NCBI GenBank assembly: GCA_951406725.2
Contig: OX597818.1
Span: 87,730,001-87,794,000 of the forward strand
Length of the DNA stretch: 64,000 bases
Direction of reading: 5' to 3'
From: Octopus vulgaris
Taxonomy: Eukaryota
The position numbers and the translations under genes were made by a program. Shown one piece after another: positions 32,320-57,308 of the stretch (position 1 is its first letter; each line of letters starts with the position of its first letter). The notes under the pieces were generated by a model. The model was not told where the DNA came from. It worked only from the letters and a program-made list of their open reading frames with translations, and ran no database searches.

Positions 32320-32750
32320 CTTTATTACCCACAAGGGGCTAAACACAGAGGGGACAAACAAGGACAGACAAAAGGCGGCAAGCTGGCAGAAACGTTAGCA
32401 CGCCGGGCGAAATGCTTTGTGGTATTTCGTCTGTCGTTACGTTCTGAGTTCAAATTCCGCCGAGGTCGACTTTGCCTTTCATCCTTCCGGGGTCGATAAA
32501 TAAAGTACCAGTTTCGCACTGGCTTAATCCGTTTGTCTGTCCTAGTTTGTCCCCTCTATGTTTAGCCCCTTGTGGGTAATAGAGAAATATATATCGACCC
32601 CAGTGCGTAACTGGTACTTATTTAATCGACCCCGAAAGGATGACAGGCAAAGTTGACCTCAGCGGAATTTGAACTCAGAATGTAGCGGCAGACGAAATAC
32701 CGCTAAGAATTTCGCCCGGCGTGCTAACGTTTCTGCCAGCTCGCCGCCTT
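32320..32750. mobile_element. Plus-strand SINE A (32372-32590) inserted into a minus-strand SINE A
   Basis: Minus tail 32320-32370, minus head/core 32593-32750, plus copy between; both have the Tx1-like tail. Confidence 0.85.
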
Positions 32751-33342
32751 AACCACATTAACAATACCATCACACTCACTATCACCACCACTGCTACTAC
32801 TACAACCGCGTTGACGGCAACCATCACCACCACAATCACAACCACTACTACCACCATCACCACCACCACCACCATCACAACAACAACAAGAAACGATCGC
32901 CAATTGCATCGCCACCATAAGAAAACCACAGACACAAGTACCACCACTACGGCTACCAGCCGCCATTGCCGTCACCACCAGCATCATCTTCTCCCCCATC
33001 ACCACCACCAGTATTTCACCACCACTGTTAACACCGCCATCACTATTACCATCAATATCAGCACCACCACCACCACCTCCACCACTTCCACCACCACCAT
33101 CAACAACAACAACAACAAAACCACCATCATCACCATCATCTTACTAACAGCAACAAACACAAGTACCACCGCCCACAAACCCCATCTCCATCACCATCAC
33201 CTGTGTTTTAAATTGAAGTCCTACTGAACTGTTCAATGTCACCATAATTTAATACAGATGGATAGGACGGGTCACGGCTGGTACGTCTTTGGTCAGTCAC
33301 TGCTCGATCGGTGCGGATCTAGGACGAAACAATAAATAACAA

Positions 33343-33574: not shown

Positions 33575-34270
33575 CGTCCTCGTTTATGGATCCGAATGTT
33601 GGAAAACAACCTAAAGTATTGAAAAGAAATTGGAGGTATTTCGAAATAAATGTTTACGAAAAATTTTGAAGGCATACTAGCCGAATATGATCTCGAATAG
33701 CCAACTACATACACCAAAGCTAACGTGAAACCAATAAGAGAAACTATCGAAGCAACTATTGAAGAAACTATTAAGGCGGCGAGCTGGCAGAAACATTATC
33801 ACGCCGGGCGAAATGCGTAGCCGTATTTCGTCTGCCGCTACATTCTGAGTTCAAATTCCGCCGAGGTCGGCTTTGTCTTTCATCCTTTCGGGGTAGATAA
33901 ATTAAGTACCAGTTACTCACTGGGGTTGATGTAATCGACCTTATCCGTTTGTCTTTCCTTGTTTGTCCCCTCTGTGCGTAGCCCCTTGTGGGCAGTAAAG
34001 AAATAAGAAACTATTGAAGCAAAGTGATGGAAATGAATGGGTGGAGTTTGTCGCCATAAATCGAATTCAATTGTCAGGATAATTTTGCAATGGATTCCAC
34101 AAGGTAAAAGAAGACGTGGCCGATCAAAGGAAACGTGGTGGAGAACAATAACAAAAGATCTTAAAAATAGACGGTTAACAATGGAACAAGCTGTCAAGGA
34201 CGCTGTCAGTGTTGGAAGATGGAATAATCTTGCTATCGCCTCGAGTGCCACAAGGCACAATGAGAACCGA
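33575..34270 (+). pseudogene. RTE-clade LINE C-terminal relic interrupted by a SINE
   Basis: VYGSECWK, EVFRNKCLRKIL, WIPQGKRRRGRSKETWWRT. Confidence 0.85.
33773..34004 (+). mobile_element. SINE A with Tx1-like tail and 11-bp target-site duplication
   Basis: AAGAAACTATT at 33762-33772 and 34005-34015. Confidence 0.92.
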
Positions 34271-34331: not shown

Positions 34332-34812
34332 TGAAGTATATTTGTCACCTAAATGTGGCTATCTCTTAAGGGTCGATGCTGCTGTAGCTTGTAGCCCCAG
34401 GAAGATATCTCCTCCAGCTGGTAACTGACACACTGTGCCCTATCAGTATTCGCAAAGGGAAATCATTGTTCCCATCTCCAGCCTGACGTGATACACACGG
34501 ACTCGAATTTCTGGGTATTGACCCATCATCAGCGTGTGACAACCACCGGTTGACGATGGTGGGTGGTTCTCAATGCAAATATATTTACTTTTTCCAGTGA
34601 CGAAAAATTACTGATCTCGAAAAAGTGGAAACAAGCGATAATAAATTTCTGAGGGCATAGATAGTATGTCACTAGCCAGCTGGAGGATATTTCTTCCTGA
34701 GGATAGAAGCTACAGTACTATCGACCCTTAGGGGTTAGCCACATTTAAGTGGCAAATATACTTCACGATGTTGTGCAGCTACTGTTTATAACTCGCTCAG
34801 AGATTTATTATT
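34332..34812. mobile_element. Fold-back element: ~110-bp imperfect inverted arms (34332-34441, 34652-34765), ~210-bp spacer, one-sided tail
   Basis: TGAAGTATATTTGTCAC...GTGCCCT pairs with AGGGCA...GTGGCAAATATACTTCA. Confidence 0.85.
34494..34538 (-). ncRNA. Minimal type I hammerhead ribozyme
   Basis: Minus: CACACG CTGATGA TGGGT-CAAT-ACCCA GAAA T-TCGA-G TC CGTGTG; intact core, 6-bp helix I, 5-bp helix II, GUC site. Confidence 0.88.
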
Positions 34813-45084: not shown

Positions 45085-45285
45085 CGTGTGTACCGTTGGC
45101 GATTTTTTTCCTCTGTCCTCCCTTCTCTGGATCTTTCCTTCTCCTACGTTTCTGACGAAGAGCTCTGCTCGAAACGTTAAACCCTCCTTCTTTCCTTCTT
45201 TCCTAAGCGTCCAATAATACTATATTTGTTCCACGTCCTCGCGTTGTTGTGTTTTTTGGTGCTTTCTTGTTTGGATTAACTGTAT
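45085..45285 (+). mobile_element. Penelope pLTR-like fragment between (TA)n tracts
   Basis: Contains hammerhead at 45148; homologous to 20220-20420. Confidence 0.65.
45148..45182 (+). ncRNA. Minimal type I hammerhead ribozyme
   Basis: GTTT CTGACGA A GAGC-TCT-GCTC GAAA CG TT AAAC; palindromic ACGT helix III typical of dimer-dependent PLE hammerheads. Confidence 0.75.
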
Positions 45286-47951: not shown

Positions 47952-48217
47952 GTAGTAATAATAATAATAATAATAGTAATTATTATTTGAGGGAATATTA
48001 ATCCTAACTTACAGGGAAAACATTCAATTTCTCTGTGTATCTTTCTGTTGAAGAGCGTAGGCTCGAAACGTTAAAGACTTGTTTTATTTATATTTCCTGA
48101 GCGCCATACTAATACAATTGTTTGTTTGTATTCCACCTGCCTTCGTCTTTTGTTTATTTCCGTAAACCTGCCTTCGTCTTTTGTCTATTTTCATAAAGCT
48201 TCCCGTTATATATATAT

Positions 48218-49068
48218 GCCACCCACGACACACTAGAATTAATGTCCCTTTTTGTTTAGCTAGAAGGATTTGCACCATAATATCAGACACAAACACCCGA
48301 CACACACGTCTCCAGGAACTTAGAACCACACTCACAAATAGAAACTATCCACAGCCCCTAATAGACAGTGCAATCCAACGGGTACTTAAATTAAGTATAG
48401 AAGACCTGAGACAAACAAAACCAAAAAAGAAAGAACAATTAAAAACCCTTCCCTACATCTCTACACACAACCCACTCAACAATGAGGCCTTCAACACCAT
48501 ACTACAAAGCACAGCCCTACTAAAGGGAGACCCAAAGATGAACCGGATCCTCGAAACACACACCATCATTAAAAGTAAACGGCAACCAAAATCCTTGAAA
48601 AGGATTTTAACCCAAGCTACACTGCACTCAACATCAACCACAAAACCAGCAGTTAGAAAATGTGGAAGGCCCAACTGCAGAATCTGTGTCATCTTGAAAG
48701 AAGGATCAGAATTTATACTGGAACAAGGCCACCAGTTCACCATTAGAACAAACTTCATCTGCGCATCAGAAAACTTAATTTACGTCATAACATGCGCAGG
48801 CTGCAATAGGCAGTATATAGGCCATACAAAAAATAGCTTACGTAACAGGATGGCGGTGCATAAATCACAAATTAGAAACCCTGATTACCGCAAAATACCG
48901 GTCAGCGGACACATAGATAGATGTGCTGGAAATGTAAATCCGAAATTTACAACTAACCCGCTCTATAAATTCAGTGACAACGCAACCTTCACACAACGCC
49001 AAAATAAAGAACTATATTTCATAAAAACATTTAGACCATGTTTAAACACCCTGGGCCAGGAATACTAA
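48218..49068 (+). pseudogene. PLE polyprotein C-terminus: RT thumb, Zn linker and GIY-YIG endonuclease (open frame, lacks RT core)
   Basis: CHPRHTR..P..LARRI..I.S, LTNRNYP, LPYISTHNP, CGRPNCRIC, LIYVITCAGCNRQYIGHT, RNRMAVH, ELYFIKTF. Confidence 0.92.
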
Positions 49069-53860: not shown

Positions 53861-55050
53861 CTTGCAGGCATTTTGTAAAGCTTATGTTGAAATTTTGACA
53901 TGTCACGAATCCTTAAAACTTACTATATCTCTTCATAGGGGAGGGATATATCAACGAAGATTTTTGAGATGTTGCTTCATAGGGCTCTTTAACTATTATT
54001 TCTAAACTATCACAAGATCATTTCATTTTATTTTATACTTTAGATTTAATTTTCATTCGAATGTATATGCGTGTGCCTGCATGCGCGTGTGTATCTGTGT
54101 ATATTTAACTTGCCTGTATAAGCTACTGTATTATATGTAATTACTTAAAGTATTCGCTCTCTATGGGACATAGGCCATTGATGTATTTTTTCCATTGATC
54201 TTAACTCTGGGCTGTCCTCACCTAGGTCTTCTTGGTTTCGAACTGTCATCGATGCTTCTGTAATTCTGATTTTTTCTACGTCGCTGTGTTGACACTAAAA
54301 AAAATTTACCTCTGTGAAGAGGTGGTTCATATTAGTTTGACCTTTTCCCTTTGACCCGTCCAGCATGGGAAGTGCTAGAAAGAACTTACTCTCCGCTGGC
54401 ATAGCTCTCAGAGTCACTGAAGGACACGATCCACCACATGGCAACAAGGCCCGGACCTTGTTGTGGTTATCATACATACAATGATATCATATGCGTATCA
54501 TTGTACGTGATATGCTTATCACGTGGAAACCTCGACGCGCTGATAGAAATAATAGCTTGACTTGAATGCAGAAGAATATATCTGATGGTATAACTTCCAG
54601 TAAACTATACCTGGATAAAAGAAGAAATTGCCATGTCTATGCCGTCTTTAGTTATTATTTGGGTTGGACAAGGCAGCGAACTGGCAGAATCGTTAGCATG
54701 CTGGGCAAAATGCTTAGCGACATTTTGTCCATCTTTACATTCTGAGTTCAAATGCCACTAGGGTCGACTTTGACTTTCGTTCTTTCAGAGTCTATAAAAT
54801 AGGTACCAGTTCTTTTATTTGTTTCAGTCATTTGAGAACAGCCATGCTGAAGCACCGCCTTTAGTCGAGCAAATCGACCACAGGACTTATTCTTTATAAG
54901 ACTAGTACTTATTATATCGCTCTCTTCTGCCGAACTGCTAAGTTATGGGGGACGTAAACACACCAGCATCGGTTGTCAAGCGATGTTGGGGGGACAAACA
55001 CTGACACACAAACATATACAGACACATATACACATGCATATATATATATA

Positions 55051-55301
55051 TAAGGCAAATAAGAAAATGCAAAGGATAATCAGTCAACAAACATCAGCCT
55101 GTAAACATACATTTGGATCTATGTATTAATTAAATTACAACCAAGGATGGCTGTGAGGTAAGTAGCTTGCTTATGAACCACATGGTTCCGGGTTCATTCC
55201 AACTACTGGCACCTTGGGCAAGTGCCTTCTACCATAACCTCGGGCCGACCAAAGCCTTGTGAGTGGATTTGGTAGACAAAAACTGAAGGAAGCCCGTCAT
55301 A

Positions 55302-55364
<63 letters not shown>

Positions 55365-56206
55365 ATGCATATGTTTGTGTGTCTGTGTTTGTCCACCCAA
55401 CATCGCTTGACAACCGATGCTGGTGTGTTATGTCCCCGTCACTTAGCGGTTCGGCAAAAGAGGTCGAGAGAATAAGTACTAGGCTTCCAAAGAATAAGTT
55501 CTGGGGTCGATTTGCTAGACTAAAGGCGGTGCTCCAGCATCGACGCAGTCAAATGACTAATATAAGAAAAAGAGTAAATATGTATAAGTAATCAAAATAA
55601 ATAAACAAATAAATAAATAAGCAAAGAAAGAAGTAAACAAAAAATAAACAAAATATATGAAGAAATAATCAAAATATATTATTAATAGTTATTGTCAAGC
55701 TAATATGGCAGTCCAGAAATAGAGGACGAATGCTGCCGTTGATTAGCTCAAAGAAGCCATCGCCTCTAGCTAGCTATGTGGCACACGAACCTGTGTCCAT
55801 TATAACCTTCGAACAGGTGAAGTCAGCCGCTTCCCCTTCTGCATTGATAGGGGGTAAATACCCTAAAACTAGTCTGCAGATGCCTGACCAGCAAGGGGAA
55901 GTGGCTGACTTCCCCTGTTCGAAGGTTATAATGGACACAGGTTCGTGTGTCACATAGATAGCTAGAGGCGATTGCCTCTTGGAGCTAATCAACTGCAACA
56001 TTCGTCCTATATTTCTGGACTGCCATATTAGCTTGGCGATAACTATTAATATCCAGTACCGCTTAGAATTATTAATATTTCTATTTACAAAATAAGTTAT
56101 TTTGATTACTTATACATATGATTGTAATTAATAAATGGATCCAAATGAATACTGACAGGCTGATGTTTGACGATTGATTATCCTCTCCATTTTCTTATTT
56201 GCCTTA
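55051..56206. mobile_element. Long fold-back element with hammerhead-like fold at its centre
   Basis: Inner arms 55681-55838 / 55893-56052 closely matched; outer arms 55051-55141 plus 55578-55600 pair with about 56096-56206. Confidence 0.9.
55838..55880 (+). ncRNA. Variant or degenerate minimal hammerhead
   Basis: TCTGCA TTGATAG GGGGT-AAAT-ACCCT AAAA CTAG TC TGCAGA: all three helices present, four core substitutions. Confidence 0.6.
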
Positions 56207-57308
56207 TAAATTCTGGGTAAATTTCTGCTTTACCCCCACTCATACATATTATTCAATTGCGCTACTGCCCTGCAACAGCAAGCACTAGGATATAAATACG
56301 TAGGTATACATCCAGTAGTATATTGGATATACATTATCCCTTAGATGGTTGTTTAACCTCTAACTATCTCTCTCACACATACGCACGTATATATATGCGA
56401 CGGGCTTCTTTCAGTTTCCGTCTACTAAATCCACTTACAAGGCTTTGGTCAGCCCGAGGCTATAGTAGAAGACAGTTGCCTAAGGTGCCACGCCGTGGGA
56501 CTGAACCTAGAACCATGTAGTTGGTAAGTGAGCTACTTACCACACAGTTGATTACTGAACACGATGTAATCGACTTCCCCATCCCCATAAATTGCTGGCC
56601 TTGTGCCAAATTAGAAATCATTATTAAAGTTGGCCAGGAGTTACTACAAAATCAGTGATGAGATAAAAATTAATAAAATAGGAAATAACAAATATTGTTG
56701 CTATTGTCGTTTAAGCCAAACTTGATTTTCATTAAAGAGAACTACGAACAAATCTAATCACACCATGACCATCTCGTCTTTTAAGTGATAACCTATCTGT
56801 CCTTCCACGTTTATGAAGCGATGCCTTGATCTGAGCGAGTTGCGACTGCTGTTTCGTGCAGGTGCAGTGAATATGTAGAGATGTAATCGTTAGTTGGGGT
56901 GTTAACGCAAGAAAAAAAAAAGACTGATGCAGGTTGAATCTTTCGGATTTAAACTGCTTATAGACAACATTTAGAATAAAATGCACTTACATAAAGACTG
57001 GCTGAAGAAATGGCAGTATTAATGGTTATGTGAATGACTAGAAGGATAGATGAATGATTGGTAGGTGTTGGGAAGTTGTCACACGTCAATGAAAGGAGAA
57101 AAGAACTTTCGAGAATAATGAAGAATATTTCTAAAAAATGAAAATAAAGAGTTAGTTAAAGAGAAACATCAGCGAAAACATTAAAAAGTGAACAACAAGC
57201 TAAATTTTAACAGGCGCTAAGTGGCAAGATATAAATTTCATTATGTATGTGTGTATGTATATATATATGTATACATATATACATACATACGTATATATTT
57301 GCGTGTAT

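Follow-up and report, generated by a model that had tools for sequence, protein, structure and literature searches.

The second large hairpin of the window (the whole stretch of Octopus vulgaris DNA that was analysed, 64,000 nucleotides long) is very probably a head-to-head insertion of a retrozyme, family A, within another head-to-head insertion, that of a repeat termed family B, whose AT-rich centre it occupies, the hairpin itself being a likely by-product of Penelope-type reverse transcription. The initial annotation had read the hairpin as a new class of element presenting a four-change natural hammerhead variant; neither the new class nor the four-change ribozyme holds.

Two nested insertions at the locus

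The inner inverted arms (55680-55838 and 55893-56051) are 159 nt long, 92% complementary and spaced by 54 nt. The outer arms pair 55046-55143 plus 55578-55602 with 56097-56211, and 102 of 115 aligned bases are identical when the insert at 55144-55577 is excluded. Between the inner and outer pairs lie ~77 and ~45 poorly paired AT-rich bases. The arms of ~270 bp (159+115) with an inserted repeat that had been described are therefore real, but they belong to two nested families and not to one hairpin element. In a search of the genome (2.8 Gb in 227 contigs), the inner arms were found to derive from family A, a dispersed repeat with 2152 first-look candidates, 40 of which were scored, and the outer arm matched family B, with 715 candidates. 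The outer arms were not matched in any of the 29 other family A loci returned. Since the inner arms are family A and the outer arms family B, the locus is read as a B hairpin whose AT-rich centre received an A insertion (Table 1).

Table 1. Features of the hairpin locus and related units (window coordinates unless a locus is named).
Feature	Position	Strand	Remarks
Family C, first hairpin of the window	34332..34765	(-)	core CUGAUGA/GAAA at 34532 (-); arm ends at unit positions 211 and 264
Family B inverted copy, outer part (outer left arm)	55046..55143	(-)	starts at fixed point mirroring 56211
SINE-like repeat with (TA)n/(TG)n	55144..55577	(+)	dispersed repeat, inserted in family B left arm
Family B inverted copy, inner part	55578..55679	(-)	into AT-rich tract of B
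Family A inverted arm	55680..55838	(-)	unit positions 214 to 56; 3' end at site 1
Family A type I hammerhead motif	55838..55880	(+)	
Helix I	55838-43/55875-80		
Core	55844-50 and 55865-67		
Helix II	55851-54/55861-64		
Palindrome	55868-73		
C17	55874		
Private changes	55850 (A9G), 55865 (G12A)		minority letter at 55855
Family A sense arm	55838..56087	(+)	unit positions 1-226 and 249-273 (about 22-24 nt missing); 3' end at site 2
Family A sense-arm tail	56052-56087		absent from inverted arm
Family B sense copy, 3' end	56097..56366	(+)	followed by (CA)/(TA) microsatellite
Family D reference unit	L248:1001-1356 (G000:C5:77463000-77463355)		further loci L249-L265

The right end of the hairpin had been placed at 56206; family B continues to its 3' end at about 56366, at a microsatellite, and its segment 56212-56366 reaches past the inverted arm. 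Judging from the nesting, B would have inserted first and A then into its centre. The repeat in the left arm of B, a putative SINE as in the initial annotation, is shown by the analysis to be a dispersed repeat, and would have entered that arm as a further insertion.

Copies of family B are AT-rich and variably 5'-truncated, with common sequence extending about 2.5 kb or more upstream of the 3' end. They form head-to-head pairs of their own, in which the inverted copy begins at the point mirrored by 56211. No hammerhead was found under the descriptor in 24 loci of family B; no ORF was found, and tblastn with three Penelope-type proteins gave no match in 20 further loci. As a repeat in its own right, family B (window 56097-56366; L032-L055, L268-L287) is long, AT-rich and non-coding and ends at microsatellites. 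The start of its inverted copies is fixed, about 155 nt short of the 3' end; if B is Penelope-type, this would make an unusually long tail. Further inverted pairs in the window (54811-55052 / 55330-55573, 55151-55306 / 56389-56547 and 32590-32752 / 33771-33933) are apparently neighbouring copies, in opposite orientation, of common SINE-like repeats.

The hammerhead motif and the core of family A

The apex of the inner hairpin reads helix I UCUGCA/UGCAGA, UUGAUAG, helix II, AAAA, ACUAGU and C, and the 96-nt region around it folds with z = -5.9. The reported hammerhead fold is present at 55838-55880, and it is kept among the copies of what is indeed a repeated element. With E up to 10, Rfam matched no hammerhead on 55780-55960; nor did any hammerhead model appear among the best 150 of 324 matches for the whole window. 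Helix II, described as GGGGU/ACCCU, is there, but its fifth pair, U55855-A55860, is a minority state (C in 46 of 52 copies).

To describe the core, we aligned 52 distinct indel-free copies, obtained from 55 hits by removing 3 duplicates and the window's own loci; it should be noted that half of the loci were selected because they resemble the apex in the window. Position 3 is U in 48 of these copies, position 8 is A in 51, position 9 is A in 51 and position 12 is G in 48, and G9 and A12 never occur together. Exact patterns searched genome-wide, which overlook copies bearing additional changes, gave 241 matches, namely: 238 with A9/G12 and one each with G9/G12, A9/A12 and G9/A12, the last being the window copy; patterns permitting C3 or G8 added 10 matches. 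These counts identify U3-A8 as the family core and A9G/G12A as private to the window copy. The core of family A is UUGAUAA/GAAA, which is neither of the two consensus forms that had been considered: it agrees with UUGAUAG/AAAA, and differs from CUGAUGA/GAAA, at U3 and A8, but does not share G9 and A12 with the former.

Of the two paired changes proposed as natural, then, C3U with G8A is borne out as covariation, already published for Penelope-like elements, whereas A9G with G12A occurs in 1 of 241 exact matches, the window copy itself. Because the latter two occur jointly in one copy only, they probably reflect decay, not a new ribozyme. By rough arithmetic on the single rates, ~0.02 copies with two core changes would be expected among 241, which counts against the decay reading, although the copy was chosen for that very reason. 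G12 is the general base of the hammerhead. The window copy has lost both A9 and G12 of the conserved core and is the single sense motif at the locus, and its hammerhead is predicted to be inactive. A search of the available literature under the mutant names G12A/A9G or C3U/G8A returned no paper.

Two family A copies are predicted to reach a dimeric active form at -26.2 kcal/mol, against a co-fold minimum of -27.6 kcal/mol, whereas two window copies prefer another fold in prediction (-26.8 vs -33.1 kcal/mol). The palindrome of family A alternates between ACUAGU and ACAUGU (45 vs 30 copies), palindromicity being kept by a TA/AT switch; the set behind these counts includes 26 loci picked by an exact hammerhead pattern, for which reason per-region conservation figures were set aside. 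Elsewhere in the window, at 45148-45185 (+), lies a minimal motif of hammerhead type whose core is canonical and whose helix III is palindromic; the descriptor match is at 45152.

Tandem units, insertion ends and sister families

Family A consists of 361-bp units (365 bp in subfamily A2) with a GC content of 0.41-0.44 and one hammerhead each. Two loci, L068 and L076, carry two hammerheads 361 bp apart, and L137 and L205 contain >2 units each. In the mapped loci, copies that reach upstream of the hammerhead continue into the end of a preceding unit. The multimers seen are short, reaching ~2.5 units in family A and ~3.5 in family D (see below), and do not form long arrays. Family A shows no RT + GIY-YIG ORF and no LTR around an internal region, and tblastn of four Penelope-type proteins against the window's family A stretch gave no match. 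By its anatomy, as read from the DNA, family A is a non-LTR retrozyme, a reading against which the shortness of its multimers counts. Assembled contigs of four runs, whose RNA origin is guessed, cover the family A unit; they carry no level, end or circle information.

In the available text on metazoan non-LTR retrozymes (PMC7229834; bioRxiv 10.64898/2026.07.22.740005), these are non-coding tandem units of 150-450 bp, GC under 50%, with one type I hammerhead per unit, a 6-bp helix I, a 4-bp helix II and no LTR; they occur as dispersed monomers together with Penelope-like elements. Family A resembles them (Cervera & de la Pena 2020, as far as accessible) in its non-coding tandem unit, unit size, GC, single type I hammerhead, helix sizes and the lack of an LTR, as well as in its dispersed monomers and the presence of Penelope-like elements in the same genome. 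Unlike metazoan retrozymes as described there, families A and D have a U3-A8 core. Likewise, the mostly dispersed partial units, head-to-head inversions and two fixed 3' ends seen here, and known here from DNA, are not among the features given in those portions.

The ends of family A insertions were mapped in a sample defined by a 30-nt pattern near the 3' end. The pattern had 112 matches; we took the 30 at the head of the listing and then, up to contig 18, 40 more stretches in the order listed, omitting 8 places already in hand from earlier searches, and merged two duplicate pairs, which left 68 insertions. For the count, two pieces of L172 were joined, and short or distant extra pieces were dropped in L150, L157, L159, L233, L238 and L240. 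Thirty-five insertions are head-to-head and 33 have no hairpin. Among their 103 arms, 54 end in site class 1 (unit positions 195-225, mostly 214-216), 44 in class 2 (255-290, mostly 271-272) and 5 elsewhere, i.e. 98 arms end in either class and family A has two fixed 3' ends, at about 215 and 272. The head-to-head pairs combine one arm of each class in 29 cases, with one 1+1 pair, one 2+2 pair and four pairs with an unclassed end. Thus, 29 of 31 classifiable pairs have one arm per site (p = 2e-7 against 0.5). The window copy obeys the same rule, its left arm ending at 214 and its right arm at 273.

These ends bear on the possibility that the hairpins are MITE-like DNA transposons or inverted duplications formed after insertion. 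The long inverted arms and the AT-rich targets would agree with it, but it is extremely improbable: the outer ends are fixed and unequal (215 vs 272) and the inner ends variable, single-arm and tandem copies are common, half of the insertions being single-armed, and a post-insertion duplication would not yield one arm per start site.

The 5' ends of the arms are scattered from -356 to +236. Only one of the 35 sampled hairpins has an apex comparable to the window's, 19 have no complete hammerhead, and six have an arm end within -15..+6 of the hammerhead start. The hammerhead does not set the fold point, and the junctions are scattered. At -17..+18 there are 15 of the 103 arm 5' ends, vs 8 and 4 in the neighbouring 36-nt bins, an excess noticed post hoc and partly sensitive to alignment ends; owing to this weak excess near the hammerhead start, the fold point may be not wholly random. 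Just 2 of 103 5' ends fall at unit positions 33-42, while 40 lie past that region; given this lack of a pile-up at the cleavage site, the main template is not the cleaved linear monomer. The 40 arms that pass through the cleavage site, some of them over more than one unit, fit an uncleaved or circular template.

The two arms of a hairpin are no more alike than separate copies. In the window, they differ at 12 of 159 sites, each arm being 6-8 sites from the column majority. Both arms belong to the same subfamily at 43 of 43 loci, and in subfamily A1 the median arm-to-arm divergence of 7.5% (29 pairs) is not distinguishable from the copy-to-copy value of 8.4% (6034 pairs; p = 0.2), which argues against a maintained hairpin. 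The arms were made in one event and then decayed independently, and nothing suggests hairpin maintenance.

The idea of a fold-back class whose long hairpin serves to present a hammerhead at its tip, in this case a natural variant with four changes, draws on a fold that is real, and it would accommodate both the weak 5'-end excess and the six hairpins with an arm end near the hammerhead start. It is nonetheless highly improbable, since G9 with A12 is unique to the window copy, a comparable apex recurs so rarely, 33 of 68 insertions have no hairpin at all, the arms have diverged like separate copies and the outer arms come from a different family. It had also been argued that the design recurs in two unrelated families and so represents a general class; the two hairpin families are homologous, as follows.

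The window's first hairpin (34332-34765) belongs to family C, which has 3407 candidates in the genome, the core CUGAUGA/GAAA in most of 26 copies, and arms ending at about 211 and 259. The units of C and A are homologous across their whole ~360 nt, with 213 of 324 positions identical and an alignment score of 178 vs 72 +/- 10 for 300 shuffles (152 vs 63 shuffled without the hammerhead). A pattern search revealed a third family, D, with a 356-bp unit, a U3-A8 core, multimers to about 3.5 units, and 3' ends at 217 and 260. Many of its insertions are head-to-head and multimeric, and its copies are up to 96-100% alike; family D is very young and likely recently active. Pairwise identity among the units of the three families is 55-66% (scores 150-209 vs about 75 +/- 10 for shuffles). 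RNAalifold on eight natural units recovered helices I and II and small hairpins that are kept, one of them just before site 1; both-side changes occur in 4 of 6 helix I pairs, though with eight related sequences from four lineages these changes count lineages, not events. Site 1 falls at the same alignment position across the three families, and C and D share with A the 5' truncation, the inverted 5' copy, the one-end tail and the two fixed 3' ends. From these sequence comparisons, A, C and D form a group of three sister retrozyme families that show compensatory changes.

Penelope-like elements and the proposed origin of the hairpins

The genome contains many GIY-YIG loci with intact 781-aa frames, in which Pfam recognizes RT and GIY-YIG (RT just below the curated cut-off). 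At the 3' ends of these elements lies a U3-A8 hammerhead whose palindrome is ACAUGU and whose helix I is very short. In addition, the autonomous elements (L194:4883-4920; L180-L187, L191, L195, L200) have two 3' end points some 35-40 nt apart.

According to the available text of Cervera & de la Pena (2014, PMC4209133), Penelope-like pseudo-LTR hammerheads have a covariant U3-A8 pair, about 1,300 hits in Schistosoma, a short palindromic helix III and predicted dimer activity. Family A has the U3-A8 pair, the palindromic helix III and the predicted dimer form in common with them. Unlike those hammerheads as presented there, the motif of family A has canonical helix sizes and lies in an ORF-less unit, and the commonest forms here lack the G10.1-C11.1 pair (A-U or G-U in family A).

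Could family A then be the detached pseudo-LTR of some autonomous Penelope-like element, its short tandems being partial repeats of that element rather than traces of a circular-RNA retrozyme? The insertion anatomy and the U3-A8 core are common to A and the genome's autonomous elements, and retrozymes have been argued, on co-occurrence and kinship, to derive from Penelope-like pseudo-LTRs (Li, Clavereau & Pollet 2026, bioRxiv 10.64898/2026.07.22.740005, in the text available). However, the upstream-extending A copies of the mapped loci run into a preceding unit and have no other shared sequence. When the A and C units were compared with the flanks of 32 GIY-YIG loci, no pseudo-LTR homology was found; two matches were separate neighbouring insertions, and the units never adjoin the ORFs as a pseudo-LTR. 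We consider a detached pseudo-LTR unlikely and retain the retrozyme reading for family A.

Craig et al. (2021, PMC8557442) describe the insertions of Penelope-like elements as partial tandems truncated at the 5' end, which often have an inverted copy, itself 5'-truncated, at that end and a tail of 30-40 bp at one end. A purified Penelope-type protein is reported to cut and extend both strands of AT-rich targets, to use two internal start sites bounding the tail and to take uncleaved RNA as its main template in vitro (Frangieh et al. 2024, PMC11167929, in the part available). This anatomy, i.e. 5' truncation, partial tandems, inverted 5' copy, one-end tail, AT-rich or microsatellite targets and two 3' sites, is matched here. 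Tail length is about 57 nt for family A, 48 for C, 43 for D and about 155 for B, vs the 30-40 usual for Penelope-like elements in that account, and the elements here have no ORF.

Family A has likely been spread by Penelope-type retrotransposons. In the proposed mechanism, the hammerheads of source copies would cleave as dimers via the palindromic helix III, releasing unit-length RNA. The RT/GIY-YIG protein of an autonomous Penelope-like element would then bind multimeric or circular family A RNA, cut both strands of an AT-rich target and extend each, one from each internal start site, and the two incomplete cDNAs would be joined at their far ends. Such joining would account for arms that overlap in sequence, for a tail confined to one arm and for the randomness of the fold point. 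In the window copy, the sense arm would have stopped by chance at helix I, leaving a single motif, and A9G and G12A would have been gained later.

A broader reading, which we find plausible and hold with about even confidence, is that a lineage of at least three sister families (A, C and D) has kept its hammerhead, palindrome and RT start region through about 40% divergence while switching between C3-G8 and U3-A8, and that its insertions record the priming of both target strands in a single integration event, one per fixed internal site. If true, this would be direct genomic evidence for retrozyme mobilisation by Penelope-type enzymes. The prior case is built on the kinship of sequences and on co-occurrence; in the present families, it is the insertions that bear the Penelope signature. 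The one-arm-per-start-site rule (29/31) connects the two start sites and two-strand extension seen in vitro with the inverted copies and the tail on one side, both long known. If the broader reading is true, an intact 781-aa element and the young family D would together offer a ready pair for reconstitution. The literature consulted on octopus hammerheads, retrozyme inversions and Penelope tails, comprising few subscription papers, contained nothing on families A, C or D or on a count of one arm per site; published supplements may list hammerheads from octopus or entries in repeat libraries.

With respect to the autonomous elements themselves, several copies have an upstream frame of 333-479 codons, with no Pfam match, ahead of the main ORF. 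The window also contains, at 48217-49065, a 3' fragment of a Penelope-like ORF that is 95% identical to the 781-aa RT + GIY-YIG protein of L194.
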